Shown: positions 1 through 20,242, counted from the first letter of the stretch. The stretch is DNA of 64,000 nucleotides from Vicinamibacterales bacterium (GCA_965202655.1 CBDBBK010000002.1:658528-722527), one strand, 5' to 3'. Notes: a model not told the origin generated them from the letters alone. Numbers and translations: made by a program.

Positions 1-1190
1 GAGATGGCGCCATAGGCGAGGACGCCGATGAGCTGCGTGACGAACGAGTGGTCCGGATTGACGCTGAAGAGCCCGACCGCCAGGGTGCCCCAGATGCCGC
101 AGACCAGGTGGACGGAGATGGCGCCGACCGGATCGTCCAGTTGTGCGCGGTCGATCATGATGACCGAGGCGACGACTATGAATCCGGCGACTAGGCCGAT
201 GACCATCGCCGCGTTGACGCTGACGGTGTCGGCGCCCGCCGTGATGCCGACCAGGCCGGCGAGCGATCCGTTCAGCACCATGGACAGGTCCGGCTTGTGC
301 TGGACCGACCACGAGCCGATCATCGCGCCGATCACACCGGCCGCCGCCGCGAGCGCGGTGGTGACGAACACCAGCGATACGAGTCCGGGATCGGCGCTCA
401 GCACCGAGCCGCCGTTGAACCCGAACCAGCCGAGCCAGAGCAGGAAGACCCCGATGGTGGCAAGCGGCATGCTGTGGCCCGCAATCGGTCTGACCCTGCC
501 ATTGAGGTACTTGCCGAGCCGCGGACCGAGCACGATGACGCCGGCCAACGCGCCCCAGCCGCCCACCGAATGGACCAGCGTGGAGCCGGCGAAGTCGTAG
601 AAGCCCATCTGATCGAGCCAGCCGCCGCCCCACTTCCAGGAACCGGCGATGGGATAGATGATCGCGACGTAGATGGTCGTGAAGACCAGGAAGGAACCGA
701 GCTTGATGCGCTCGGCCACGGCGCCCGAGACGATGGTGGCCGCGGTGGCGGCGAACATCGCCTGGAAGATGAAGTCGGTCCAGTAGGTATAGCCGGGGTT
801 GTAGGCGCTGGTGATGCCTTCGGCGCCCGCGTCGATGCCGAAGCCGGCGAACCCGAAGAACTGCCCGATCGAGAAATCGCCCGGGTACATCAGGTTGAAG
901 CCGACGAAGGCGTAGGTCAGCAACCCGATCGCGATGACACCGGTGTTCTTGAACAGGATGTTGACGGTGTTCTTGGCCTGCGTCAGTCCCGACTCCAGGC
1001 AGGCGAAGCCGAGGTGCATGATGAACACCAGGAAGGTGGCGACCAGCATCCAGGTGTTGTTGACGGCGAACATTTCGTCCGTGACGTCATCCTGCGCGAA
1101 CGCTGCCACGGGCGCGAGCACCACGAGGAGCAGCGCCGGCAGGGCGAGACGGCTGAAACGGACGAGTGAGTGGCGAACTGCGTGTGTCAT
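1..1190 (-). CDS. amtB: ammonium transporter, Amt family (3' end runs off the window start)
   Basis: Hand translation of the minus strand from ATG at 1190 gives MTHAVRHSLVRFSRLALPALLLVVLAPVAAFAQDD...NNTWMLVATFLVFIMHLGFACLESGLTQAKNTVNILFKN, and later DFAGSTLVHSVGGWGALAG. These are Amt/MEP hallmarks. It is absent from the ORF track because no stop lies in the window. It sits 34 nt downstream of glnK. Confidence 0.88.
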   Translation of the reverse strand, partial: MTHAVRHSLVRFSRLALPALLLVVLAPVAAFAQDDVTDEMFAVNNTWMLVATFLVFIMHLGFACLESGLTQAKNTVNILFKNTGVIAIGLLTYAFVGFNLMYPGDFSIGQFFGFAGFGIDAGAEGITSAYNPGYTYWTDFIFQAMFAATAATIVSGAVAERIKLGSFLVFTTIYVAIIYPIAGSWKWGGGWLDQMGFYDFAGSTLVHSVGGWGALAGVIVLGPRLGKYLNGRVRPIAGHSMPLATIGVFLLWLGWFGFNGGSVLSADPGLVSLVFVTTALAAAAGVIGAMIGSWSVQHKPDLSMVLNGSLAGLVGITAGADTVSVNAAMVIGLVAGFIVVASVIMIDRAQLDDPVGAISVHLVCGIWGTLAVGLFSVNPDHSFVTQLIGVLAYGAI

Positions 1191-1224
1191 GAGTGGTTTC
1201 CTGCTCTTGATCGTGGAGTGGCTC

Positions 1225-1650
<426 letters not shown>

Positions 1651-2052: not shown

Positions 2053-3600
2053 CTACCGAAAACGTCGACAGTCGATCCCGTATTTCTTCACCTTGTAGTT
2101 GACGATTCGCTCGGTGGAATCGAGCAGTCTGGCTGCTCTGACGCGATTCCCGCGGGTGGTCTTGAGGGCGTCCTGCAGCAGGTCCTTTTCGTAGGCGCTT
2201 ACTGCATCGGCGAGCGAAACCCGCGTCACCGTGCCGGAGGCTTCCGCCGTCTGGAGACTGGGGGGCAGATGGTGCGCGTAGATGACGCTGCCGTCACACA
2301 CCAGGGTAGCCCGCTCGATGGTGTTCTCCAGCTCGCGCACGTTCCCCGGCCAGTGGTACGCCATCAGCATGTCGATGGCGGGCGTGGAAATCCGCTTCAC
2401 CTCCTTCCGATGCTCCACCGAGTACTTCTCGATGAAGCTGTCGGTCAGGAGCTGGATGTCGGTTTTCCGTTCCCGCAGCGGCGGCACGAATATGGTGAAG
2501 ACATCGAGCCGGTAGTGGAGATCCTCGCGGAACGTGCCGCTGGCGATCGCCTTCTCGAGATCCGCGTTGGTGGCCGCGATCAGCCGCACGTTCGCACGGA
2601 TTGGCTCGACCCCCCCGAGCCGCTCGAACTCCTTCTCCTGCAGCACGCGGAGCAGCTTGATCTGCGTGGACAGGTTGATGTCGCCGATCTCGTCCAGGAA
2701 CAGCGTGCCGCCCTCGGCCAGTTCGAAGCGGCCCTTCTTCCGCGCCGCCGCGCCGGTGAAGGCCCCCTTTTCGTGACCGAAGAGCTCCGCCTCGATGAGC
2801 GAGTCGGGCAGCGCGGCGCAGCTCACCTTGATGAACGGCTTCTTCGCGCGGGTCGAGTTGTAGTGGATGGCGTGGGCGATCAACTCCTTGCCGGTACCGG
2901 ATTCGCCCCGGATCAACACCGTCGTATTGGTCGCCGCCACCTGCGTGATCTGTTCGTAGACCTGTCGCATCGGGCCGCTCGTCCCGATGATCTGCGCGAA
3001 GTCGTAACGCTCCTTCAGTTCCGCCTTCAGGTGGATGTTCTCGTCCAGCAGGCGCTGCCGTTCGGCCTCGGCCGCCTCCTTCAGGCGGATCGCCTGGCCG
3101 AACATGCTGGCGACCACGCGGCAGACATGCAGGTCGCGGTCGTAGTGGCGCTTCGCATCGAAAGCAAAGTCGATGTTGAGGGCGCCGATGGCTTTCGTGG
3201 CGCCCGGTATGGGGGCGCAGAGGAAGGTGATTTCGGAACGAACCCCCTTCGGCCGGCGGCCGGTCCGATGGAGGAATTCCGGTTCCTGGCTGATCTGCGG
3301 CACCACGACGGGCTGACCGGAGGCGACTACGCGTCCGGTGATCCCTTCGCCCATCTCCCACTCGGCGTGCCGCCCCTCACCCGGTACCCCCGCTGACGCC
3401 CAGACGCGCATGCGTCCGCTATCCGGGTCGGAGAGCACGACCGCGCTCCGGATGACGCCGTAGTCGTTGTCGAGAATCTCCAACGCCCGTTGCAGCCCTG
3501 CGCGGGGCGACTGCGCCATGGTCAGCGCCTGATTGATCTCCGCCAGCATCGCCAGCGGCCTGACCTCGTCAGGGAGCGACTTCAGCCTGATCTTCGGCAT
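2053..3600 (-). CDS. sigma-54-dependent transcriptional activator with N-terminal GAF domain (NifA-like architecture, no receiver domain)
   Basis: AAA+ sigma-54 interaction module (GESGTGKE Walker A, GAFTGA loop, REDLHYRL). GAF-like N-terminus. C-terminal Fis-type HTH (GNRVRAARLLDSTERIVNYKVKKYGI). The ORF track extends to 3681, but a sigma-54 promoter at 3697-3712 makes the ATG at 3600 (MPKIRLKS...) the more plausible start. Confidence 0.85.
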   Translation of the reverse strand: MPKIRLKSLPDEVRPLAMLAEINQALTMAQSPRAGLQRALEILDNDYGVIRSAVVLSDPDSGRMRVWASAGVPGEGRHAEWEMGEGITGRVVASGQPVVVPQISQEPEFLHRTGRRPKGVRSEITFLCAPIPGATKAIGALNIDFAFDAKRHYDRDLHVCRVVASMFGQAIRLKEAAEAERQRLLDENIHLKAELKERYDFAQIIGTSGPMRQVYEQITQVAATNTTVLIRGESGTGKELIAHAIHYNSTRAKKPFIKVSCAALPDSLIEAELFGHEKGAFTGAAARKKGRFELAEGGTLFLDEIGDINLSTQIKLLRVLQEKEFERLGGVEPIRANVRLIAATNADLEKAIASGTFREDLHYRLDVFTIFVPPLRERKTDIQLLTDSFIEKYSVEHRKEVKRISTPAIDMLMAYHWPGNVRELENTIERATLVCDGSVIYAHHLPPSLQTAEASGTVTRVSLADAVSAYEKDLLQDALKTTRGNRVRAARLLDSTERIVNYKVKKYGIDCRRFR

Positions 3601-9871: not shown

Positions 9872-10798
9872 TCAGGCGGCCTGTTCGGCGCTCGCCTGTC
9901 GGAGCACCCGGATGAACTCGGTTACCGCCGGACTGAGCCGGCGGCCGCGGCGATGGACGATGCTGAGCGGCCGGACGAACGGCGCCTCGCCGTCGAGCGT
10001 ATCGAGCGGCACGGCGACCAGCGCGTGCAGCTCCACTTCGCGGCGGAGCGTCGGTTCCGGCAGGATCGCGACGCCGGCGCCATCTTCCACCGCCTGCTTG
10101 ATGTTCTCGATGTTGTCGAACTCGGCCACGATATGGACGTCCGCTTCGTTCCGCCTGAGGTAGCGGTCAAGCTCGCGCCGCACCGGAAGTCCCCGGTCGA
10201 ACGTCACGAACGCTTCGCCTGCCAGCTCCCACGGTCCGATGGCTGCATTGCGCCGGGCAAGACGGTGCGACGGCAGGCAGGTGACCATCATCGTCTGCTC
10301 CTGCCACGGCACCACCGTCAGGTCGCGTCCGGGTGCCGCGAACGCCAGCAATCCCAGGTCGTACTGGTCGCTCTGGATGCAGGTGGGGATCTCGTCGGGA
10401 TGCATGTAGTCGACGTCGACGTGCGCGCCCGGCTCCGCGGCGCGGAACCGGTCGACGTACTGGTTCAGGTCGTGCATGCCGACCGAGTAGATCGACGCCA
10501 GGCGCACCGTGTGGGCGGCCCGGCTGGTCTGTCGTTTCACCGACTCTTCGAGCTCGCGGTAGCGTTCGACGATCTCCTGGGATCCCTTGAAGAACAGCTC
10601 GCCCTCGGCCGTCAGTCGCCAGGGCCTCCGGGAACGGTCGATCAGTTGCGCGCCGATCCGCCGCTCGATTTGCCGCACGGTCTGGCTGGCCGAGGACTGC
10701 GACACCGAATTGGCGAGCGCGGCCCGCGAGAAGCTCTGATGCCGCACGACGTCGCAGTAGATACGGAGGGCCTCGATCTGCATGGGTGGAACGGACAT
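9872..10798 (-). CDS. LysR-family transcriptional regulator, first gene of the gltBD transcription unit
   Basis: Typical LysR N-terminus ([44 protein letters not shown]) plus a substrate-binding domain. Its stop is only 14 nt before the gltB ATG. The track start at 10825 is a TTG inside a palindrome. ATG at 10798 or 10783 is more plausible. Confidence 0.85.
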
Positions 10799-10815
10799 TG
10801 TAGACGCGGCATTAA

Positions 10816-10835
10816 CTGATAGCAAGCGCTATCAG
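10816..10835. promoter_or_regulatory. perfect 8-bp inverted repeat, candidate LysR operator
   Basis: CTGATAGC-AAGC-GCTATCAG, 18 bp upstream of the ATG at 10798. A third GCTAT half-site follows at 10841-10845. Confidence 0.5.
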
Positions 10836-10890: not shown

Positions 10891-11493
10891 CTAGACCAGC
10901 GTCTTGAGGGCCGGCGCGTTGGCGATGCGAATCGTCACGCCGGTGCGATCCCGGTCCGCGAGCGGAGCCGACTCCACGCGCGCGTCGCCGAAGATGAGGC
11001 GCGCGGCCTGTTCGGCGGCGTCCTGAAGCTCTCGTTCCACGTCAGGATCCTTCGGCGCGTGCAGCCGATCGTTGACCACCAGTTCGATCCGGTCAGCCTC
11101 GAACGGCATCGCACCGTCCGGGTCGTCGGCCGTGTCCTGCTGCAGGCGCCGGGCCGCGAAGAAGAGCGTGCTCGCGGCGTCGGCGATGCGGCCGGCGAGG
11201 GAGCCGGGCGTCTTCCGTTTGACGGCGTAGGCGAAGCCCGCGCGCTGGTGGCAGTCGAAGACGTAGTTCGCTTCGTGGGCCACGAGCAGGACGTTCGGAG
11301 ACTCGGGCAGGTGGCCGTAGTCGGCGACGTCGATCAGCAGGCCGGGCACCGCCCGCTCCCGGATCCAGCGGTGGAAGATATCGATGATGTCACGCGGCCG
11401 CACCGCGCGGCCTTCCGCCAGGAAGAGCTTCACGCTGAAGCGTTCGATGGCGTCGACGTCGACTGCGTGATCCATCCGGGCGGCCTGCACCAT
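10891..11493 (-). CDS. hypothetical protein, last gene of the sulfite reductase operon
   Basis: 200-aa ORF starting 15 nt after the sir stop on the same strand. Amino-acid composition is normal, unlike the Arg/Pro-rich shadow ORFs. I recognise no family. Confidence 0.55.
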   Translation of the reverse strand: MVQAARMDHAVDVDAIERFSVKLFLAEGRAVRPRDIIDIFHRWIRERAVPGLLIDVADYGHLPESPNVLLVAHEANYVFDCHQRAGFAYAVKRKTPGSLAGRIADAASTLFFAARRLQQDTADDPDGAMPFEADRIELVVNDRLHAPKDPDVERELQDAAEQAARLIFGDARVESAPLADRDRTGVTIRIANAPALKTLV

Positions 11494-11508: not shown

Positions 11509-13839
11509 TCAGGCGGTCGGCGCTTCCGCCGCGGCGGACACCGCGCCGGCGCTCCCCGCCGGCCGTGCGGCGAGCCGCGCGGCGCAGGCATGGCACGCCT
11601 CGAGGAAGAGTTGCGCCTCCTCGATCAGGTGGTGCACAGTCTCTTCGGTCTCGCGCGGACCGGAGCCGTGCCGGCGGAAGAGGTACATCGCGAACTTCCC
11701 CCCGGCGTACTTGTCGAAGAAGACCTGGGTGTCGAAAAAGCGGGTCCTGAACTCGCGGACTATCGTGTCGGCGTCGTCCCCGATGTCGACGAACTCGGTC
11801 TTGATCAGCCCGCGGGCGCCCAACAGCATCGACCGGTAGGCGAGTGCGTCGGCCTCTGCCGGCGAGCCTTCCTCCAGCCTCAACTGGGCTTCGAAAATCT
11901 GCGCCTCGGCCGCCGCCAGGTCGAACTCGGTGAGCGTGACCACTTCGCCGGCGCACTCGCCGACGCCCATGTCTCCCAACGTGAACTCGCGCGGGTCGCC
12001 CCAGTCGGAATAGAAGGACGGGTCGTCGTCGTGCGACGGCACCGCTGCGAGGTCGGCGAACATCTCGCGCAGCGCGCGCTTGCCGATCCGCCGCGTGTAG
12101 TCCTGGAACGTCTCGTTCTCCTGCCGCTCGGCGACGAACCGGCCGGTGATTCTATCGATCACCTCCGGGATGCGCTTCGACGGAATCGCGCCCGACGCCA
12201 GCCCGTAGGATCCGGCGTTCTCCGTCCATTGCCCGCCCAGCACCACCTGGAAGTGCGGCACGGCGTAGCCGCCGATGTTCCGGCTGACGCCATAGAAACC
12301 GAGATCGGCGACGTGATGCTGGCCGCACGAGTTGAAGCAGCCGCTGGTCTTGATGCGGAGTCCGCGCACCGCCGGGTCGGTCGCGCTGTCCGGCCGCCCG
12401 AGGTGATTCGCCAGCTCCGCCGCCAGGCCGCGTGACGAGGCGATCCCCAGCTTGCACGTGTCGGTGCCGGGGCAGGCCGTAATGTCGGTGATGGTCCCGG
12501 CTCCCGGACTATCCAGCCGGATTGCGCGCAGCCCGTCGTACAGCTCCCGCAGATCCGTCTCGCGCACCCACCGCAGCACGATGTTCTGCTCGGCCGTCGC
12601 CCGCGCTTCGCCCCGGGCGTAGCGCTCGACGAGCGACGCCAGGCCGCGCATCTGGGTGGAGGTCAGATCGCCCAGCGGCAGGGTGACGGTGACGACGGCG
12701 TAGCCGGCCTGGCGCTGGTGGTAGACGTTGGTCTGCGCCCAGCCGTCCAGGCGCTGCCGGGCGGCGTCGGCGTTCGCGTTGCTGATGTGAAGCGTCACGG
12801 GAACGCCGGATGGGTTCGGCCGCGCGTCGCAGGACGGTCCCGGCGCAGCCGGAGGGCCGGCCGCGGCGTCCGCGAGGTGCGCCGTCCACCGCGGGTCTTC
12901 CGGCAGCCCCGCCCGCTCTTCCAGTACGAGTCGGCGGAATTCTTCGAGGCCCAGTTGCGCCACGAGGAACTTGATCCGCGCCCGCGCGCGGTTCTTCTTC
13001 TCGCCCAGGCGAGCGAAGATCCGCGCGATCGCCTGCGCCGTCGGCAGCAGCTCCTCCACCGGCAGGAACGGGTCGAACAGCTTCGCCTGGTACGGCACCG
13101 CACCGAGCCCGCCGCCGACGTAGGTCTCGAAACCGCGCCGCTCCACACCGTTCTCGTTCCTCGTTACGGCGACAAGTCCCAGATCGTGCATCGCCACCAG
13201 TCCGCACGCCTCGTCACGGCATCCGGAGAACGCCACCTTGAACTTCCGGCCGAAGTCCTGCGTGTCCGGGTGGCCGAGCAGGAAGTGCATGCACGCCACC
13301 GCATGCGGCGTCACGTCGAAGGTCTCGCCATGGCAGACGCCGGCGAGCGGACAGGCGGTGACGTTCCGGACCGTGTTGCCGCATGCCTCGCGCGTCGTGA
13401 TGCCGACGGCGGCGAGGCGGCGCATCAGGTCGGGCGTGTCATCGATATGGACGAAGTGGAGCTGGATGTCCTGCCGCGTGGTCACATGGCAGACTCCGTC
13501 GCTGTACTCCTCCGCCAGGTCGGCGAGAGTTCGCATCTGCGCCGGGTCGAGCAGCCCCATCGGAATCTTGATCCGCTGCATCCCGGGGGCGTCCCACACG
13601 GTGTCGGGACCCTTGGTCAGCTTGTCCGCCGAATACGGCAGAGGTTTCGGACCCGTTCCGTCGTCCCGGTGTCCGTTGTCGTACCGCTGCCCGTAAACGC
13701 CTCGGCGCAGCCGGGTCTCGGCGAAGACTTTCTCGTCGATTTTTCCCTGGCGCCGAAGCTCGATCTGACTTTCGAAGAGATCGATTTCCGCGCCGAGATC
13801 CGCCGGAATCCGTTCCGCCAGTCTTGTCTTCCAGGTCAT
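11509..13839 (-). CDS. sir: ferredoxin-type sulfite (nitrite/sulfite) reductase hemoprotein with about 175-aa C-terminal extension
   Basis: 776 aa. Duplicated NIR_SIR ferredoxin-like/siroheme modules, with cluster ligands TACPGTDTCKLG ... TSGCFNSCGQHH. Its start overlaps the cysG stop (ATGA). Confidence 0.88.
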   Translation of the reverse strand: MTWKTRLAERIPADLGAEIDLFESQIELRRQGKIDEKVFAETRLRRGVYGQRYDNGHRDDGTGPKPLPYSADKLTKGPDTVWDAPGMQRIKIPMGLLDPAQMRTLADLAEEYSDGVCHVTTRQDIQLHFVHIDDTPDLMRRLAAVGITTREACGNTVRNVTACPLAGVCHGETFDVTPHAVACMHFLLGHPDTQDFGRKFKVAFSGCRDEACGLVAMHDLGLVAVTRNENGVERRGFETYVGGGLGAVPYQAKLFDPFLPVEELLPTAQAIARIFARLGEKKNRARARIKFLVAQLGLEEFRRLVLEERAGLPEDPRWTAHLADAAAGPPAAPGPSCDARPNPSGVPVTLHISNANADAARQRLDGWAQTNVYHQRQAGYAVVTVTLPLGDLTSTQMRGLASLVERYARGEARATAEQNIVLRWVRETDLRELYDGLRAIRLDSPGAGTITDITACPGTDTCKLGIASSRGLAAELANHLGRPDSATDPAVRGLRIKTSGCFNSCGQHHVADLGFYGVSRNIGGYAVPHFQVVLGGQWTENAGSYGLASGAIPSKRIPEVIDRITGRFVAERQENETFQDYTRRIGKRALREMFADLAAVPSHDDDPSFYSDWGDPREFTLGDMGVGECAGEVVTLTEFDLAAAEAQIFEAQLRLEEGSPAEADALAYRSMLLGARGLIKTEFVDIGDDADTIVREFRTRFFDTQVFFDKYAGGKFAMYLFRRHGSGPRETEETVHHLIEEAQLFLEACHACAARLAARPAGSAGAVSAAAEAPTA

Positions 13840-15263
13840 CGTCCCCGCCCCCCGGCGCGGCGTCGTCGGGCCGCCCCTTCGGCATCGATCCGCGTGTCGG
13901 CGCTACGCTCCGCGTTGGCTCCGATCAGGAGCCGCAGCCGCGCCACCTCACCAACAACAAGCGTTCCCGGCGTTGACGGTTCACTGCCGCGCTCCGGAAC
14001 GGTCGTCCCGTCCGCGCCCGGCCATTCGAACCGCCCGTCTCCCAGCGCATCCAGGCGACCGTTCCAGGTCGCCATATCGGGGGTCGCAGCCCCGAGCACG
14101 ACCGCGGCCGGCGTGTCCGCCCGCCACCCGACATCGAGCAACGTCCGCACAATCCGCTCGCGATTCCGCAATCCCATCAGCACCACGATGGTCATCGACC
14201 CCGGCGCGACGCTCCGCAGGATCGGTTCATAGGCTTCCGGGGCGTGCCCCGACACGACGGTGAAACCCGTGGTCATGCCGCGATGGGTCACCGGAATGCC
14301 TGCAAGGCCCGGCGCCGCCACCGCCGACGTCACGCCCGGGATTACCTCGAACGTCACTCCTGCCGACGCCAGGGCCAGCGCTTCTTCGCCGCCGCGCCCC
14401 AGCAGGAACGGATCGCCGTTCTTCAGCCGCACCACCCGCTTGCCGCGGCGCGCGCCGCGAATCATCAGCCGTTGAATGGTCTCCTGCGTCACGGCCGGAC
14501 GTCCGGCGCGCTTGGCGACGCTGAAGTGCTGCGCGCGCGTGGCCAGCGCGACCGTCGATTCGGGCACGAGGCCGTCGTACAGCACGAGATCCGCTTCGGC
14601 GAGGCGCTGCGCCCCGCGGACGGTGAGCAGATCCGGATCGCCCGGCCCGGCGCCGATCAGCGAGACGAAGCCGCCGCCATCGGGCGCGGCCGTCCGCCGC
14701 CCGTCGCGTTCGTACAATCCGATCAGCGCGTCGAGGAGTTCGGGCCGGCGCGCTTCCATCGGCGTGTCGTCCCGCCGCCAGCGGGCGCGCAGTCGATCCG
14801 ACTCGAGGAGCCACCGCTCGAGATCCGTCTCGGGGAGGATTGCATCGAGTCCCTCGCGCAGCAGACCGGCGATCGCGGGCGCCCGGCCGTCGGTGGAGAT
14901 CGCGATCGTGGCGCCGCCGCGACGCACCACGCCGCCGAGATAGAGGCTGGCGTTCGGCGGATCGTCGACCGCGTTGACGAAGAGCTGGCGGTCGCCCGCG
15001 GCGCGCGCCACTTCGCGGTTCACCGCGGGCGATGCCGCGGCGACGACGAGCCAGGCGCCGTCGAGGTCGGACGGCTCGAACCGGCGGCGGATCAGCGTGA
15101 CGCCGGGCGTCGACGCGATCTTCTCGACGATGGCCGGCGCGATCACCGTCACCTCCGCCCCCGCCTCCTGCAGCCCGCGCACTTTGGAGGCGGCGACGGG
15201 GCCGCCCCCGACGACCACCACGCGGCGGCCGTTCAGTTTCAGGAACGCGGGAAAGAGCTGCAT
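13836..15263 (-). CDS. cysG: siroheme synthase (precorrin-2 dehydrogenase/ferrochelatase + uroporphyrinogen-III C-methyltransferase)
   Basis: From the ATG at 15263: MQLFPAFLKLNGRRVVVVGGGPVAASKV (the CysG N-terminal Rossmann fold), then a SUMT domain (VSLIGAGPGDPDLLTVRG ... LKNGDPFLLGRGGEE). The Arg-rich 74-aa N-terminal extension in the track is rejected. Confidence 0.9.
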   Translation of the reverse strand: MQLFPAFLKLNGRRVVVVGGGPVAASKVRGLQEAGAEVTVIAPAIVEKIASTPGVTLIRRRFEPSDLDGAWLVVAAASPAVNREVARAAGDRQLFVNAVDDPPNASLYLGGVVRRGGATIAISTDGRAPAIAGLLREGLDAILPETDLERWLLESDRLRARWRRDDTPMEARRPELLDALIGLYERDGRRTAAPDGGGFVSLIGAGPGDPDLLTVRGAQRLAEADLVLYDGLVPESTVALATRAQHFSVAKRAGRPAVTQETIQRLMIRGARRGKRVVRLKNGDPFLLGRGGEEALALASAGVTFEVIPGVTSAVAAPGLAGIPVTHRGMTTGFTVVSGHAPEAYEPILRSVAPGSMTIVVLMGLRNRERIVRTLLDVGWRADTPAAVVLGAATPDMATWNGRLDALGDGRFEWPGADGTTVPERGSEPSTPGTLVVGEVARLRLLIGANAERSADTRIDAEGAARRRRAGGRGR

Positions 15264-15282
15264 CTGTGGTTCGATCCCTGTG

Positions 15283-16047
15283 TCACGGATCCGCCGACAC
15301 GGTCTCCGGTTCGGGCGCCGTATGCAGGCCGCACTCGGTCTTCGCCGTGCCCCGCCAGCGTCCCGCCCGCTGGTCCTCGCCCGGCGCGACCCAGGTCGTG
15401 CACGGCCAGCAGCCGATGCTGGGGAAGCCCTGATCGTGCAGCGGGTTGTAGGGCACGTCGTGCTTCGCGAGGTAGCGCCAGACATCCTTCGCCGTCCACG
15501 TGACGAGCGGATTCACCTTCGCTATCTCGAACTTGCCGTCCCACTCGACCGTCAGGGCGTTCGCGCGCTGCGGCGTCTGATCGCGCCGGATCGCGGCGAT
15601 CCAGGCATCGACGTTTTCCAGCTCCTCGCGCAGCGGGATCACCTTCCGCATGGCGCAGCAGCGGTCGGGTGCGCGTTCCCAGAGCCGATCGCCGTACAAC
15701 GCGTTCTGTTCGTCCACCGCCAGCGCCGGCTTCACCCCGCGGATCGTCAGGCCGTAGCGCGCTTCGAGCCGCCGCCAGAGATCACGGGTTTCCTCGAAGA
15801 TCAGGCCGGTGTCGAGCGTGAAGATGTCGATGGGGAGTGCGTGGCGACCGATGAGATCGATCAGAACGCACCCCTCCGGACCGAACCCGGTGGCAAACGT
15901 CAGCCGGTCGGCGTACTCGTCCACCGCCCAGCGCAGCACGTCCTCCGGCGGCGTCCCCTCCAGCATGGCGGCGACCGTGGCAAGGTCGTTTTCCGCCGCG
16001 TACCCGTTCTCAAACCGTTCCGCGCGTTCCAGAACCGTAGTGCTCAC
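15283..16047 (-). CDS. cysH: adenylylsulfate (APS) reductase, thioredoxin-dependent, Fe-S type
   Basis: PAPS_reduct fold. It has a CC pair (DRCCAMRKV) and CxxC (IGCWPCT), characteristic of cluster-containing APS reductases, plus a C-terminal ECGLH. The GTG start at 16047 overlaps the tauE-like stop (GTGA). Confidence 0.88.
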   Translation of the reverse strand: MSTTVLERAERFENGYAAENDLATVAAMLEGTPPEDVLRWAVDEYADRLTFATGFGPEGCVLIDLIGRHALPIDIFTLDTGLIFEETRDLWRRLEARYGLTIRGVKPALAVDEQNALYGDRLWERAPDRCCAMRKVIPLREELENVDAWIAAIRRDQTPQRANALTVEWDGKFEIAKVNPLVTWTAKDVWRYLAKHDVPYNPLHDQGFPSIGCWPCTTWVAPGEDQRAGRWRGTAKTECGLHTAPEPETVSADP

Positions 16048-16838
16048 CAAATGCCTCCGTACGCCATCGAAATACCGTGCGCCCCACCGAACATCGCCAA
16101 GTGAATGCCGAGAAACAGCAGCACGGTTGCCAGACCGGTCCGCAATGTGCGTTCCGGAACCACGATCGACATCCGCGCGCCGATCAGCACGCCGGGGATG
16201 GCGCCACAAAGCACCAGGCCCGCCAGCGCGAAATCGACGCGTCCCGCCGCGGCATGACCGACCGTCGCCGCCGCCGACAGAAAGAGCGCGTGGACCAGGT
16301 CGGTGCCGACCGTCGTCCGCGCGCCAAGGGGATACGCGAGCACGAGCGCGCAGAGCAGGAGCGAGCCGCTCCCCACGCTTGTGGTCGCGACCAGAACGCC
16401 GGTAACGAAACCGATCGCCACGGTAACCTGCGGCGCCGGTTGTTTCGCCGGCCGCAACCTGTCGCTGAAGCGGACGCGCAGCCAGAGCGCAACCCCCGCG
16501 AGCACCAGCACGAGGCCGAGAGCCCGCGTCAGCCAGTAGTCGATCTGCGTCGCCGGCAGCGCACCCAGGATGACGAGGCCCACGACGGCGCCCGGGATGG
16601 AGCCGAGGGCGAGCCGTCCCACGGTGGGCCAGTGCACCTCCCGGCGCAGCGCGTAGAAGCCGCCTCCGAACAGCTTCATCGCGCTGGCGATCAGGACGTC
16701 CGAGCCGATCGCGACCGGCGCCGGCACGCGCGCGATCAGGATCAGCGCCGGTGTGAGCAGCGCGCCGCCGCCGGTGGACGTCGCCCCGACCAGCAGGCCG
16801 ACGACGAAGCCGATCAGGACGGGTGCGACCTCCGTCAC
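16044..16838 (-). CDS. TauE/SafE (DUF81) family anion transporter, first gene of the cys operon
   Basis: 264 aa and multi-pass hydrophobic, with two internally similar halves bearing Gly-rich helices (GLLVGATSTGGGALLTP / GVLVATTSVGSGSLL). GTG start preceded by GAGG. Confidence 0.8.
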   Translation of the reverse strand: MTEVAPVLIGFVVGLLVGATSTGGGALLTPALILIARVPAPVAIGSDVLIASAMKLFGGGFYALRREVHWPTVGRLALGSIPGAVVGLVILGALPATQIDYWLTRALGLVLVLAGVALWLRVRFSDRLRPAKQPAPQVTVAIGFVTGVLVATTSVGSGSLLLCALVLAYPLGARTTVGTDLVHALFLSAAATVGHAAAGRVDFALAGLVLCGAIPGVLIGARMSIVVPERTLRTGLATVLLFLGIHLAMFGGAHGISMAYGGIW

Positions 16839-16942
16839 GCGGAAAACCTCGCGCGCGGCGCGCCGCCGTCGGCTACCGTGTCCATCCCGTTCACTCTGTG
16901 CGTTCCGTTCATGCGTTTCGACCGTTCTCTCGCCGCGGCCAC

Positions 16943-16974
16943 AAAAAAAGCCCGGAGGGCGTCGCCCCCCAGGC
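16943..16974 (-). terminator. intrinsic terminator inside the 5' leader of the cys operon (attenuator)
   Basis: Minus-strand RNA is GCCUGGGGGG-CGACG-CCCUCCGGGC followed by UUUUUUU. That is a 10-bp stem (8 Watson-Crick pairs plus 2 G-U), a 5-nt loop and a 7-U tract. It sits about 105 nt upstream of the tauE-like start and does not follow any minus-strand gene. Confidence 0.8.
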
Positions 16975-17013
16975 TCTCAGTCTGTCGCGCGTCGTCTGAT
17001 GTCTGCTGTTCGC

Positions 17014-17127
17014 TTACGCCATCAATGCATCCGAACGCGTACGACCGTCGCCCAGGGGAGCCCCTTGGGGCCCCATACAACAGCAGCAACAACAGGCGCA
17101 GCCGGGAGCGAAGGTCGGTACGAGCAT
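17014..17127 (-). CDS. candidate Cys-rich leader peptide (37 aa)
   Basis: MLVPTFAPGCACCCCCCMGPQGAPLGDGRTRSDALMA. Six consecutive Cys codons, UGU UGU UGC UGC UGU UGU, occupy 17095-17078. The stop UAA (17016-17014) lies 3 nt before a segment complementary to the Cys-codon run. Confidence 0.55.
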   Translation of the reverse strand: MLVPTFAPGCACCCCCCMGPQGAPLGDGRTRSDALMA

Positions 17128-17140
17128 CTGCGTCAGACGG

Positions 17141-17171
17141 ATTGTAGTCCCACCTGCACCCAGGGAGTCAA
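17141..17171 (-). promoter_or_regulatory. sigma-70-type promoter candidate for the cys leader
   Basis: The minus strand has TTGACT (17171-17166), a 19-nt spacer, then TACAAT (17146-17141). The -10 box ends 13 nt before the leader ATG, implying a very short 5' UTR. The spacer is longer than optimal. Confidence 0.35.
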
Positions 17172-17175
17172 GTTG

Positions 17176-17221
17176 GGATGGTGGGTTAGTATGCTGAGCG
17201 ACAGTAACCCGTTCGCCATCC
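17176..17221 (+). promoter_or_regulatory. nested inverted repeat / 5'-UTR stem-loop ahead of the endostatin-like gene
   Basis: Outer arms GGATGG (17176-17181) / CCATCC (17216-17221) enclose inner arms GGGTTA (17183-17188) / TAACCC (17205-17210). The element ends 3 nt before a GAGAGGAGAG ribosome-binding region. Confidence 0.35.
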
Positions 17222-17239: not shown

Positions 17240-17914
17240 ATGAGGAACAAACGAATCCGGCTGGCAGCTACGGCGGTCTTCGGTGCGTTGGTTCTGTCCG
17301 GGCTATCGGCCATGGCCCAGCAACAGGAAGAGGAGCCGCCTCCGATGGGCTTCTTCATCACCAGTACCGGCCTCGGTGACGGCGCCAACCTCGGCGGGCT
17401 GGACGGCGCGGACGCCCACTGCCAGACACTGGCCGCCGGGGCGGGCGGCGGCAGCCGCACCTGGCGGGCCTACCTAAGCACGCAGGGCCCGGGAGCCGTC
17501 AACGCACGCGATCGGATCGGGGAGGGACCGTGGGCGAACTCGGAGGGCCTCGTCATGGCCACCAGCGTCGACAGTCTGCACTTCGACAACTCCAACTTCA
17601 ACTGGACCTACACGCTGGACGAGAACGGCAACCAGTTCGCGTCACGCATCGACGGAGACCCTGACTTCACGGAGCACGACGTGCTGACCGGCACGCAGAT
17701 GGACGGCACGGCGTTTCCGGTGGGTGAGGACCGCACCTGCGGCAACTGGACCAGCAATGGCGAAGGCAGCGCCATGCTCGGCCACGCCGACCGCTACTCC
17801 TTCACGACGCCGGGTTCATCCTGGAACACCGCCCACCCGTCACGCGGTTGCTCACAGGACAATCTGGTGGCCACGGGAGGGGCCGGCCTGTTCTACTGCT
17901 TCGCCGTCGACTAA
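17240..17914 (+). CDS. secreted protein with endostatin-like / DUF1554-like (C-type-lectin fold) domain
   Basis: Signal peptide (AVFGALVLSGLSAMAQQ). By eye, GGLDGADAHCQ...TWRAYLST and ...CGNWTS...C...LFYCFAV parallel the endostatin pattern GIRGADFQC...TFRAFLSS ... CETWRT...C...VLCIE, with four Cys in equivalent order. Confidence 0.45.
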   Translation: MRNKRIRLAATAVFGALVLSGLSAMAQQQEEEPPPMGFFITSTGLGDGANLGGLDGADAHCQTLAAGAGGGSRTWRAYLSTQGPGAVNARDRIGEGPWANSEGLVMATSVDSLHFDNSNFNWTYTLDENGNQFASRIDGDPDFTEHDVLTGTQMDGTAFPVGEDRTCGNWTSNGEGSAMLGHADRYSFTTPGSSWNTAHPSRGCSQDNLVATGGAGLFYCFAVD

Positions 17915-18510
17915 GGGCCGACCCTCGCCACCAGGGATCGGATAGCCTCGGGCAGTTCCAGGGACGGGACGGCGGCGCGGCCCTCGTCCGACATCTTGCG
18001 CCACGTCTTCTTCAGGATGTCGACGACCTTGTCATCGTCGTGCTTCGCGGCGAAGTCGGCGAGGTAGTGGGTGAGGAAGACGTGACAGATGACGTCCTCG
18101 AGGAGCTGAACCTCGGGGTCGGCCTTCAGGCGGTCCTTGCGGACGAGGGACCGGACCCGCGCGATCGTCGCTTCGTCGTAACCGACATCGCCGAGGATGC
18201 CGGCCGCCGTGTCGGCATGAAAGGCGGCCAGGTCGGTGCGCCACTGGCGGTAGCCGGCGCGGCCCTCCGGGTAGTCGCCGCGTGGAATGGTCCAGCGCCG
18301 GATGTGCTGGCAGCGGGCGGCGAGCTGGACGGTTTCGTTGGCGTCGGGGGCAAACCGGTCGAGCGCGGCCGTCATGCGACTGGCATAGACCAGTTCCTTC
18401 GGCTGAGGACGGCCGCCCTCTACCTCGGTGTTGGGATCCTCCGCATTGGCGGCGTCGAAACGGCGCATCGCTTCGCGGAAGCGGGCGAACGCATCGTCGC
18501 GAGCCGTCAT
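17911..18510 (-). CDS. DUF4202 family protein
   Basis: 199 aa. Recognisable family pattern (LAARCQHIRRWTIPRGDYPEGRAGYRQWR ... PEVQLLEDVICHVFL ... KKTWRKMSDEGR). Begins 7 nt after the sat/cysC stop. Confidence 0.7.
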   Translation of the reverse strand: MTARDDAFARFREAMRRFDAANAEDPNTEVEGGRPQPKELVYASRMTAALDRFAPDANETVQLAARCQHIRRWTIPRGDYPEGRAGYRQWRTDLAAFHADTAAGILGDVGYDEATIARVRSLVRKDRLKADPEVQLLEDVICHVFLTHYLADFAAKHDDDKVVDILKKTWRKMSDEGRAAVPSLELPEAIRSLVARVGP

Positions 18511-18517
18511 CGACGCT

Positions 18518-20242
18518 CTACTCCTCGGCGCTTATGTAACCCTGGCGCTCCAGGTGCAGGATGATGCGCTGGGCCGCCTCGTCGGGCGTGAGGGACGTCG
18601 TGTCGATGGTGACGTCGGCATCCGCGGGCGCTTCATAGGGATCGGAGATGCCGGTGAACTCCTTGATGATGCCGGCCCGCGCCTTGGCGTAGAGGCCCTT
18701 GCGGTCGCGCTGCTCGCACACCGTGAGCGGCGTGTCGACATGGACGAGGGCGAAGCCGCCGAGCGGCTCGATCATCCGCCGGACGTCCTTTCGCACCGTG
18801 TCGTAGGGAGCGATCGGCGCGCAGACGGCAATGCCGCCGTTCTTCGTGATTTCGGAGGCGACGTAGCCGATGCGCCGGATGTTGATGTCGCGGTGCTCCT
18901 TCGAGAAGCCGAGCTCGCTCGACAGGTTCTTGCGCACCAGATCGCCGTCGAGCAGCGTAACCGGCCGGCCGCCGAACTCCAGGAACTTCACCAGCAGGGC
19001 GTTCGCGATGGTCGACTTGCCCGAGCCGGACAGTCCGGTGAAGAAGACGGTGAAGCCCTGCCGGCCGCGCGGGGGGTGACTCCGGCGCAACTCTTCCGCG
19101 ACGTCCGGGAAGGTGAACCAGCTCGGGATGTCACGTCCTTCGGCGAGGCGCTCGCGCAACTCCGTGCCGGAGATGTTGAGCGTGCGCCGGCCCTCCTCCA
19201 CTTCGTCTATCGGGAGGTAGGCGTCGGCATCCTGCACGTAGACCATCAGCTTGAACGGCACCATCGTGACGCCCAGCTCGTCTTCGTGCGCACGAAGCAG
19301 CTCCTGCGCGTCGTACGGCCCGTAGAACGGGTTGCCGGCGGAATCACTCCCGGGGCCGGCATGGTCGCGGCCGACGATCAGGTGCGTGCACCCGTGGTTC
19401 TTCCGGATGATGGCGTGCCAGACCGCCTCACGCGGGCCGCCCATCCGCATCGCCAGGGGCAGCAGGGACAACTGCGCGGTGTTGGATGGATAACGGTGCA
19501 GCAGCGCCTGGTAGCAGCGCACGCGCGTGTAGTGATCGACGTCGCCCGGCTTCGTCATGCCGACCACGGGATGGATCAGCAGATCGGCGCCTACTTCCTT
19601 CGCGGCGCGCAACGTCAGTTCCTGGTGCGCGCGATGCATCGGATTGCGGGTCTGGAAGGCGACCACGTTCGTCCAGCCGAGCTTTCCGAACTGCGCCCGG
19701 AGCTCGGCCGGCGTATGGCGAATCTGCCGGTAGTCGTAATGCGTCACCGGCTGCACGACGGTGACCCGCCCGCCGACGTAGTACGGATGGGTGCGGTCGA
19801 GCAGGTGCGCGACGCCGGGGTGCTCGGGGTTGTCGGTGCCGAAGACCGCCACCGCCTCCGCGTCGCGGTCCGGCTGCCAGACGTCCTCGACGTCGACCAC
19901 GGCCAGCATCACGCCTTCCGGATCACGAAGGGCGAGCTTCGATCCCGGCGAGAGCGACGCGGCGAGATCCTCCGGCACGTCGAGCGTGATCGGAATGGGC
20001 CAGAGCGTGCCGTCCGCGAGCCGCATGTCCGCGCAGACGCCGTCGTAGTCCGCGCGCGTCATGAAGCCGGTCAATGGCGAGAAGCCACCGGCGCCCAGCA
20101 ACTCGAGGTCGCAGAGCTGTCGTTCCGTGAGGTCGTGGGAAGGCCAGTCGCGAGATGCCTCCTTCAGGGCGGCGCTGTCAGCGTCGGTGGCGAAGAGGTC
20201 TACGAGCCTGCCTCCATGGGGGGCGATGAGGTGATCCGTCAC
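18518..20242 (-). CDS. sat: bifunctional sulfate adenylyltransferase / adenylylsulfate kinase
   Basis: 574 aa. ATP-sulfurylase core (VAFQTRNPMHRAHQEL, HLIVGRDHAGPG) fused to a C-terminal APS kinase with P-loop FFTGLSGSGKSTIANAL. GTG start with GAAGGAG 11 nt upstream. Confidence 0.93.
   Translation of the reverse strand: MTDHLIAPHGGRLVDLFATDADSAALKEASRDWPSHDLTERQLCDLELLGAGGFSPLTGFMTRADYDGVCADMRLADGTLWPIPITLDVPEDLAASLSPGSKLALRDPEGVMLAVVDVEDVWQPDRDAEAVAVFGTDNPEHPGVAHLLDRTHPYYVGGRVTVVQPVTHYDYRQIRHTPAELRAQFGKLGWTNVVAFQTRNPMHRAHQELTLRAAKEVGADLLIHPVVGMTKPGDVDHYTRVRCYQALLHRYPSNTAQLSLLPLAMRMGGPREAVWHAIIRKNHGCTHLIVGRDHAGPGSDSAGNPFYGPYDAQELLRAHEDELGVTMVPFKLMVYVQDADAYLPIDEVEEGRRTLNISGTELRERLAEGRDIPSWFTFPDVAEELRRSHPPRGRQGFTVFFTGLSGSGKSTIANALLVKFLEFGGRPVTLLDGDLVRKNLSSELGFSKEHRDINIRRIGYVASEITKNGGIAVCAPIAPYDTVRKDVRRMIEPLGGFALVHVDTPLTVCEQRDRKGLYAKARAGIIKEFTGISDPYEAPADADVTIDTTSLTPDEAAQRIILHLERQGYISAEE

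Follow-up and report, generated by a model that had tools for sequence, protein, structure and literature searches.

This study concerns a leader on the minus strand of a 64-kb stretch of Vicinamibacterales DNA, called the window here; all coordinates are window positions. Relatives of its TauE protein place the organism in the Vicinamibacterales, Acidobacteriota. The leader lies in a 400-bp intergenic region between divergent genes and precedes the sulfur-assimilation operon tauE-cysH-cysG-sir, whose genes were named from Pfam and NCBIfam matches. The original prediction was that this leader is a transcription attenuator of the trp/his/leu type, keyed to cysteine (Cys) and built around a short open reading frame (ORF). 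The features are listed below, with lengths in nucleotides (nt).

17141-17171, minus strand: promoter, -35 hexamer TTGACT (17171-17166), 19-nt spacer, -10 hexamer TACAAT (17146-17141), read directly
17127-17014, minus strand: leader ORF of 37 codons plus stop, MLVPTFAPGCACCCCCCMGPQGAPLGDGRTRSDALMA, with ATG at 17127 and TAA at 17016-17014, read directly
17100-17098 and 17094-17077, minus strand: candidate regulatory Cys codons, UGC in the first interval and UGU UGU UGC UGC UGU UGU in the second, from the translation
17057-17074, minus strand: hairpin A (regions 1:2), GGGGCCC (17074-17068), loop CAAG, GGGCUCC (17063-17057), -14.4 kcal/mol
17042-17062, minus strand: region 2, predicted 5' strand of the antiterminator, GGCUCCCCUGGGCGACGGUCG, from a scan, duplex energy and conservation
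16964-16983, minus strand: region 3, predicted 3' strand of the antiterminator, AGACUG-AGA-GCCUGGGGGGC = AGACUGAGAGCCUGGGGGGC, including the terminator 5' arm (16974-16964), from duplex energy and covariation
16943-16974, minus strand: intrinsic terminator, GCCUGGGGGGC (16974-16964), loop GAC, GCCCUCCGGGC (16960-16950), U7 (16949-16943), an 11-bp G+C-rich stem, read directly
16839-16942, minus strand: spacer from terminator to tauE, 104 nt, purine-rich, with GAACGG repeats, read directly
16850-16847, minus strand: tauE ribosome-binding site GAGG, read directly
11509-16838, minus strand: tauE-cysH-cysG-sir, the operon proposed to be regulated
16838-16044, minus strand: tauE (TauE/SafE, sulfite exporter), start codon GTG at 16838
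~16050-15283, minus strand: cysH, 3'-phosphoadenosine 5'-phosphosulfate (PAPS) reductase
~15280-13836, minus strand: cysG, sirohaem synthase
13839-11509, minus strand: sir, NirA/Sir-type sulfite reductase

Leader ORF, cysteine codons and conservation

7/37 leader codons encode Cys and six of them are consecutive, as originally predicted. The run itself was recognized correctly, but its position was 1 nt off: it spans 17094-17077, not 17095-17078, and the segment CUGCUGUU spans 17086-17079, not 17087-17080. In a six-frame translation of the window this is the only run of at least five Cys. A second run (CCCC, ~55672, minus strand) was rejected as it lies inside a coding region in another frame. 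The frequent use of UGU had been called surprising, and the codon counts agree: 5/7 Cys codons in the window's leader are UGU, compared with 21 UGU and 113 UGC in the window's genes. Across the related leaders there are 181 UGU and 87 UGC codons.

The element is present at 13 genome loci and 43 metagenome loci, where tauE is 50-84% identical. A scan of metagenome contigs added 62 tauE loci, most of them with a Cys-rich short ORF. All 58/58 related loci examined have a short ORF 5' of tauE with at least two Cys in eight codons, representing 53 distinct sequences; in L016, L034, L031, L068 and L043 (L numbers denote related loci) the automated choice of leader ORF was corrected or left unresolved. 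The number of Cys per leader ranges from 2 to 8 and the rest of the peptide diverges. MCCCCCHMREALCLRD, MLCCCCCTEARKGP, MRPCLRHNCSCSCVCMEP and MSLFTILNGCCCTQV are examples of divergent peptides that all keep Cys directly 5' of hairpin A, and Cys codons are also retained in the classes ...GCACCCCCCMGP... and (V)NVARIMCCCCCHMREALCLRD.... The Cys codons are in frame with a promoter-proximal start, and the last of them always lies just 5' of hairpin A. The original prediction had proposed that orthologous leaders be searched for Cys-run ORFs and for covariation. Such ORFs are conserved, and both the terminator and the antiterminator helix described below carry compensatory changes.

A covariance model, R1, was built from 31 leaders. 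It gave a full-length match at 56/60 related tauE loci with at least 200 nt of upstream sequence. At two of the four misses the tauE relative is only 36% identical; the others are a fragmentary tauE match and a partial hit. The leader gave the single R1 match in the 64-kb window (16943-17091, 110.8 bits), with no second copy anywhere in it. No leader was found at L079, where a tauE homologue lies in a non-sulfur context. Rfam 15, which includes T-box elements, S-adenosylmethionine (SAM) riboswitches and amino-acid leaders, gave no match at gathering score; the best E value was 5.4, to unrelated families (E up to 10).

The L032 metagenome contig carries two near-identical inverted leader copies, at 1111-1254 (minus strand) and 2342-2485 (plus strand), which precede tauE and an ATP sulfurylase gene respectively. 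The reach of the leader can therefore extend beyond a single sulfur operon. The gene between the two copies is cysQ-like by eye. L077, a metagenome-assembled genome (MAG) labelled Planctomycetes whose tauE is 59% identical, has at 2775-2920 a poly-Cys short ORF of another sequence, M(A)MCCCMCPTGNGPPTAPGVRVRWRRE, with a strong terminator behind it. This leader (M(A)MCCCMCPTG...) precedes tauE-cysH-sat/cysC-cysG. It is not recognized by R1, and may be a diverged relative or have an independent origin.

The promoter had been proposed as TTGACT-19 nt-TACAAT and is present in that form. Its TTGAC and TAnAnT columns are invariant and 18-19 nt apart at 14/14 loci, and the spacer sequence is variable. 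A consensus promoter scan, which accepts spacers of 16-18 nt only, gave no match at the leader. The leader ATG lies 13 nt after the -10 hexamer. We infer a transcription start near 17134, about 7 nt 5' of the ATG, which gives a predicted 5' untranslated region (UTR) of 6-7 nt. Among relatives the distance from the -10 hexamer to an in-frame start codon is 8-22 nt, and in the soil class, where the start is a GTG, it is exactly 7 nt. The marine and soil classes have predicted 5' UTRs of ~0-3 nt, and L011-L013 of 11-15 nt. No Shine-Dalgarno sequence was found 5' of the leader ORF in the window or in the leaders of relatives, and initiation is probably leaderless or nearly so. A semi-conserved motif, AACnGGTAACTGTAGCATGCGG, occurs at ~17185-17210 and 5' of the -35 hexamer in L001, L004, L014 and L011, at a variable distance from the promoter. 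It may be a promoter of the divergent gene or a regulator-binding site.

No homologue of the leader ORF was found, as no predicted protein in a database of 5.8 billion sequences shared words with it. In public annotation the leader is either uncalled or absorbed into a mis-called, over-extended tauE gene. For example, the TauE protein P0004, from an NCBI MAG named 'Acidobacteria bacterium' and 87% identical, is annotated with an 87-amino-acid N-terminal extension, MRLLLLLLYGAPRGSPGR...GGNALRAFFV. This extension is an other-frame read-through of the Cys run, hairpin A and terminator, equivalent to 17092-16839. A mechanically called ORF of 85 amino acids in the window (17092-16835) is in the same frame as the mis-extended tauE call; it is not conserved and was rejected.

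Terminator, hairpin A and antiterminator

A strong intrinsic terminator with a U7 tract had been predicted before the first structural gene. It was found 104 nt from the tauE start, with an energy of -27 to -30 kcal/mol, and it is conserved and covarying, with changes on both sides at 5/15 pairs. In nearly all family members the stem is G+C-rich and leads into a U-rich tract at least 6 nt long. The expectation that this terminator serves no upstream gene was borne out. No same-strand gene ends upstream of it and, since the leader lies in a divergent intergenic region, no same-strand upstream gene needs it.

Hairpin A was absent from the original prediction. Its first base pair comes 2 nt downstream of the final Cys codon, and it is predicted to compete with the antiterminator. 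An equivalent is present in 31/31 aligned leaders, at -5.7 to -15.2 kcal/mol. The inner stems differ among leaders (GCCC/GGGC, GCUC/GAGC, GGCCC/GGGCC, GGUCC/GGACC and GGCCU/AGGCC), with changes on both sides at 3/5 inner pairs.

The antiterminator was originally drawn as CCCCUGGGC (17058-17050) paired with GCCUGGGGG (16974-16966). The location was right but the extent was not, as the pairing is longer; the added part joins an invariant GGUCG (17046-17042) to AGACUG (16983-16978). When whole leaders were scanned, the best partner of the terminator 5' arm was region 2 at 11/14 loci, starting 15 nt after the last Cys codon. The duplex of regions 2 and 3 (2:3) has an energy of -27.3 kcal/mol, compared with -15.9 +/- 3.5 kcal/mol for shuffled sequences, 0/200 of which were as good. 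The GGUC of region 2 is invariant at 14/14 loci and GAC(C/U) is conserved 5' of the terminator, both of which are explained by the 2:3 pairing. In the L009 group the ORF is cut short by an extra nucleotide, and the downstream GACGGUC is retained outside it; its conservation is therefore at the RNA level.

Covariation was counted on a model-based alignment, A5, of 37 sequences. In the terminator state 86.9% of cells pair. Nine pairs show changes on both sides, a number reached by 1/500 shuffles, and the covariation score is 0.234 vs 0.190, with 0/500 shuffles as high. In the antiterminator state 84.5% of cells pair, compared with 26-52% when the partner is slid by 1-3 columns. Four pairs show changes on both sides, including compensatory changes at columns 41:130 (G-C to A-U) and 45:126 (C-G to U-A). 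At both of these, the region 3 change still fits the terminator by G-U wobble and is compensated in region 2. The soil class has other sequences and follows the same logic, with the hairpin at -14 to -18, the antiterminator at -31 to -34 and the terminator at -26 to -31 kcal/mol.

Several other pairings were examined. The original prediction included pairing of the Cys run with AACAGCAG (17010-17003). The complementarity exists, but as a specific element it was rejected: it is not conserved, its energy of -14.8 kcal/mol is no better than that of dinucleotide shuffles (-13.4 +/- 2.4 kcal/mol, 58/200 as good), and the mean z over 31 leaders is ~0. A candidate lower stem, formed by CUGUUG of the last Cys codons with CGACGG, pairs in 79.7% of cells, compared with 76% for a +3 slide, and has no covariation. 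Applying the window's own antiterminator register to the whole family was also rejected, as 68% of cells pair with no covariation; the majority register is offset from it by a 1-nt slip. The RNAalifold consensus of the whole leader was uninformative, and even joined the non-transcribed -35 hexamer to GGUC.

In L009:380-423 and the same region of L024 and L033 the U-tract has decayed to CUCGGAGUUGUUUG, with the hairpin and the antiterminator strand kept. Termination may be weakened, or its read-out changed, in this marine lineage.

Proposed switching mechanism and alternative explanations

We take the element, with a probability of about 0.8, to be a ribosome-mediated leader-peptide transcription attenuator that senses charged tRNA-Cys and controls read-through into tauE-cysH-cysG-sir. 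The comparative evidence supports the architecture originally proposed, in its promoter, in-frame Cys-rich ORF, terminator and antiterminator. The analysis shows the parts, their conservation and the alternative pairings with covariation, and on these a model is built in which the start site, translation, stalling and folding kinetics are predicted. Transcription would begin about 7 nt 5' of the leader ATG, and a ribosome would load at or near the 5' end without a Shine-Dalgarno sequence and enter the Cys codons. With plentiful Cys-tRNA the ribosome would pass the Cys codons and region 2 and reach the stop codon. Region 2 would be shielded or refolded into hairpin A (17074-17057), leaving the terminator 5' arm free to form the 16974-16950 hairpin, and polymerase would stop at the U7 tract near 16943. 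With scarce Cys-tRNA the ribosome would stall on the UGU/UGC run with its footprint over the 5' arm of hairpin A. Region 2 (17062-17042) would then be single-stranded and would pair with region 3 (16983-16964) once this is made. The pairing would sequester the terminator 5' arm, and the operon would be transcribed.

When the window RNA was folded as far as the terminator loop, the 2:3 pairing had a probability of 0.00 if no ribosome was present. The value was 0.16 for a ribosome placed at the stop codon and 0.45-0.87 for one that had stalled at any of the Cys codons. These modelled probabilities fit classical attenuation. The full-length minimum-free-energy fold retains the terminator whether the ribosome is stalled or not.

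Several observations weigh against this model. At -27 kcal/mol the antiterminator greatly exceeds hairpin A (-14 kcal/mol) in stability, and in the window region 2 shares just 4 nt with the 3' arm of hairpin A. In 30/50 relatives the antiterminator prevails at equilibrium even with no stalled ribosome, and the antiterminator is favoured more with a stalled than with an unstalled ribosome in just 38/50. The covariation of the antiterminator is modest, with four pairs in related sequences and 7-11/500 shuffles as good. The U-tract is degraded in one marine lineage (L009, L024 and L033) and the terminator of L006 is weak. Finally, with no Shine-Dalgarno sequence and a predicted 5' UTR of 6-7 nt, translation of the ORF would depend on leaderless-like initiation. 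Since the antiterminator wins without stalling in 30/50 relatives, the OFF state probably depends on the order of folding or on shielding of region 2 by a translating ribosome. In the window the stop codon is 26 nt beyond region 2, and a terminating ribosome leaves region 2 uncovered.

A more speculative proposal, which we hold only tentatively and consider rather unlikely, is that the Vicinamibacteria leaders and the Planctomycetes-labelled analogue form an independently evolved 'Cys ribulon', with leaderless-type poly-Cys ORFs, several sulfur operons and intrinsic termination. The antiterminator of these leaders surpasses the competing hairpin in stability by such a margin that read-through may be the default, and termination would need a translating ribosome over region 2. 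If true, this would reverse the canonical rule that no translation leads to termination.

Alternatives in which the poly-Cys ORF has another role were weighed against transcription attenuation. The experimentally proven precedent for a poly-Cys leader is translational (10.1101/834739), and the ORF could act by translational attenuation as in mycobacteria. Such a mechanism would suit L007, L008 and L010, where the hairpin ends 1-6 nt 5' of the tauE start codon, and L009 and L024, where the hairpin outlasted the U-tract. In the window, however, the hairpin and U7 lie 104 nt from the tauE start and 92 nt from GAGG, and masking is impossible. The G+C-rich stem and U-rich tract of nearly all members, together with a conserved alternative pairing that targets the terminator 5' arm, also make this explanation very unlikely. 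A second alternative is that a riboswitch or protein-binding leader switches between terminator and antiterminator, with the Cys ORF untranslated or irrelevant. The ORF without a Shine-Dalgarno sequence would agree with this, as would the sequence after the Cys codons (GACGGUCG and hairpin A), which is conserved as RNA even past a frameshift-ended ORF. It is nevertheless hard to reconcile with 53 distinct leaders that keep in-frame Cys and a promoter-proximal start while other codons differ. Interrupted runs such as C-S-C-S-C-V-C retain Cys and lose the nucleotide repeat, and the alternative poly-Leu frame, rejected as coding, is broken by a stop codon in L006. The non-homologous L077 leader again combines Cys codons with a terminator. 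With no Rfam match, and with two alternative helices already accounting for the conserved nucleotides, we consider a riboswitch or protein-binding leader highly improbable.

The ORF has its own promoter and terminator, and it might be a stand-alone small gene for a Cys-rich peptide (for example metal-binding or redox), with tauE expressed from a promoter of its own. Part of the peptide (MGPxGAPLGDGRTR) even looks conserved among close relatives, but this conservation follows the RNA pairing and not the reading frame. Between classes the peptides are wholly different save for the Cys residues, the number of which varies from 2 to 8, and the ORF is always linked to sulfur-assimilation genes. Moreover, several relatives have no room for a tauE promoter 3' of the terminator. 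In L007, L008 and L010 the terminator runs right up to the tauE start codon, and tauE can therefore be transcribed only by read-through. A stand-alone gene is thus scarcely credible.

Known leader systems and neighbouring genes

Leader-peptide transcription attenuators are known from the enterobacterial trp, his, leu, thr, pheA and ilv operons. As a proposed attenuator of this kind, the leader resembles them in several ways. Its short ORF lies near the promoter and carries a run of codons for the amino acid that the pathway makes. An intrinsic terminator precedes the first structural gene, and the terminator 5' arm also takes part in an antiterminator. A hairpin farther upstream is predicted to compete for the antiterminator strand within the footprint of a stalled ribosome. 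The leader also shares the use of a rarer synonymous codon (UGU here, CUA in the leu leader). It differs in its amino acid, cysteine, and in its host, an acidobacterium. It lacks a Shine-Dalgarno sequence, and most members have a predicted 5' UTR of only 0-8 nt. Region 1 does not contain the candidate regulatory codons, which lie just 5' of it. The antiterminator far exceeds the 1:2 hairpin in stability, and in the window a terminating ribosome does not cover region 2.

Genes for cysteine and sulfur metabolism are controlled by CysB-type LysR activators, CymR, T-box leaders and S-box (SAM) leaders. These act on the same pathway, and T-box and S-box leaders likewise choose between terminator and antiterminator. 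Unlike these two, the leader has no tRNA- or SAM-binding fold, and a translated ORF is proposed as its sensor.

Candidate Cys leader peptides that lack terminators were listed in 2005 for Mycobacterium, Propionibacterium acnes and Bifidobacterium longum (PMC1262725). In Mycobacterium smegmatis, poly-Cys leaderless short ORFs attenuate translation and unmask the following gene's ribosome-binding site (Canestrari et al. 2020, 10.1101/834739). Like the ORFs of M. smegmatis and M. tuberculosis, the ORF described here has at least two consecutive Cys codons and is the unannotated first cistron of a cysteine/sulfur operon. A leaderless or near-leaderless start is predicted here, and sensing by pausing at Cys codons is proposed. 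More than one operon per genome can carry such an ORF (in L032, tauE and sat). The mycobacterial ORFs have no conserved terminators, whereas here the next start codon is 104 nt away from a canonical terminator/antiterminator pair; the structure switched would be a terminator 92-104 nt 5' of the tauE ribosome-binding site and start codon. The phylum also differs, and the comparison is one of description, not of sequence.

A third case is uORFC-8-2, upstream of cysS in Rhodobacterales, in which tandem Cys codons come with an intrinsic terminator and ribosome-mediated attenuation has likewise been predicted (PMC8632094). There two Cys codons lie inside the first stem, whereas here the Cys codons are 5' of it. 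That leader precedes a tRNA synthetase gene, is alphaproteobacterial and has another fold, while the present one precedes tauE and sulfate assimilation.

The original prediction regarded a Cys leader-peptide attenuator as unusual. This calls for qualification, as Cys leaders are already known or predicted in Actinobacteria and Rhodobacterales. For Acidobacteria, our literature searches turned up no such element. Judged by its sequence, the leader belongs to a new family within a known kind of regulation. If the assignment is correct, Acidobacteriota would have an amino-acid attenuator whose function is assigned. The mycobacterial cases, which lack terminators, would be joined by a cysteine leader complete with promoter, ORF, antiterminator and terminator in front of a biosynthetic operon, and a repeated origin of poly-Cys pausing sensors in Actinobacteria, Alphaproteobacteria and Acidobacteria would gain support. 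Public annotation, in which the leader is uncalled or swallowed by an over-extended tauE, can be corrected. The covariance model can be used to find further copies and would help to map sulfur regulation across soil and marine bacteria that are abundant and mostly uncultured.

The order tauE-cysH-sirohaem synthase-sir is kept behind the leader in L010 and L064. The length of the spacer from terminator to tauE differs among relatives, and ACGAACGG/GGACGG runs that resemble the GAACGG repeats of the window's spacer were seen in L001-L004 and the soil class. Two further genes follow the operon in the window.

10891-11493, minus strand: ORF of ~200 amino acids 3' of the sulfite reductase gene, with no Pfam or NCBIfam match
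9872-10825, minus strand: LysR regulator gene at the end of the operon, not a CysB equivalog by NCBIfam

NCBIfam gave no name for the 200-amino-acid product, a 427-amino-acid gene product or the product of the divergent gene. The divergent gene begins on the plus strand at 17240 and encodes a 224-amino-acid protein with an N-terminus that is signal-peptide-like by eye. An ORF of ~200 amino acids also follows the sulfite reductase gene in a distant relative (L010:11213-11818). Just upstream of the leader, on the minus strand at 17911-20242, are a fused ATP sulfurylase/adenosine 5'-phosphosulfate (APS) kinase gene and a DUF4202 gene, and a convergent plus-strand gene sits between these and the leader.

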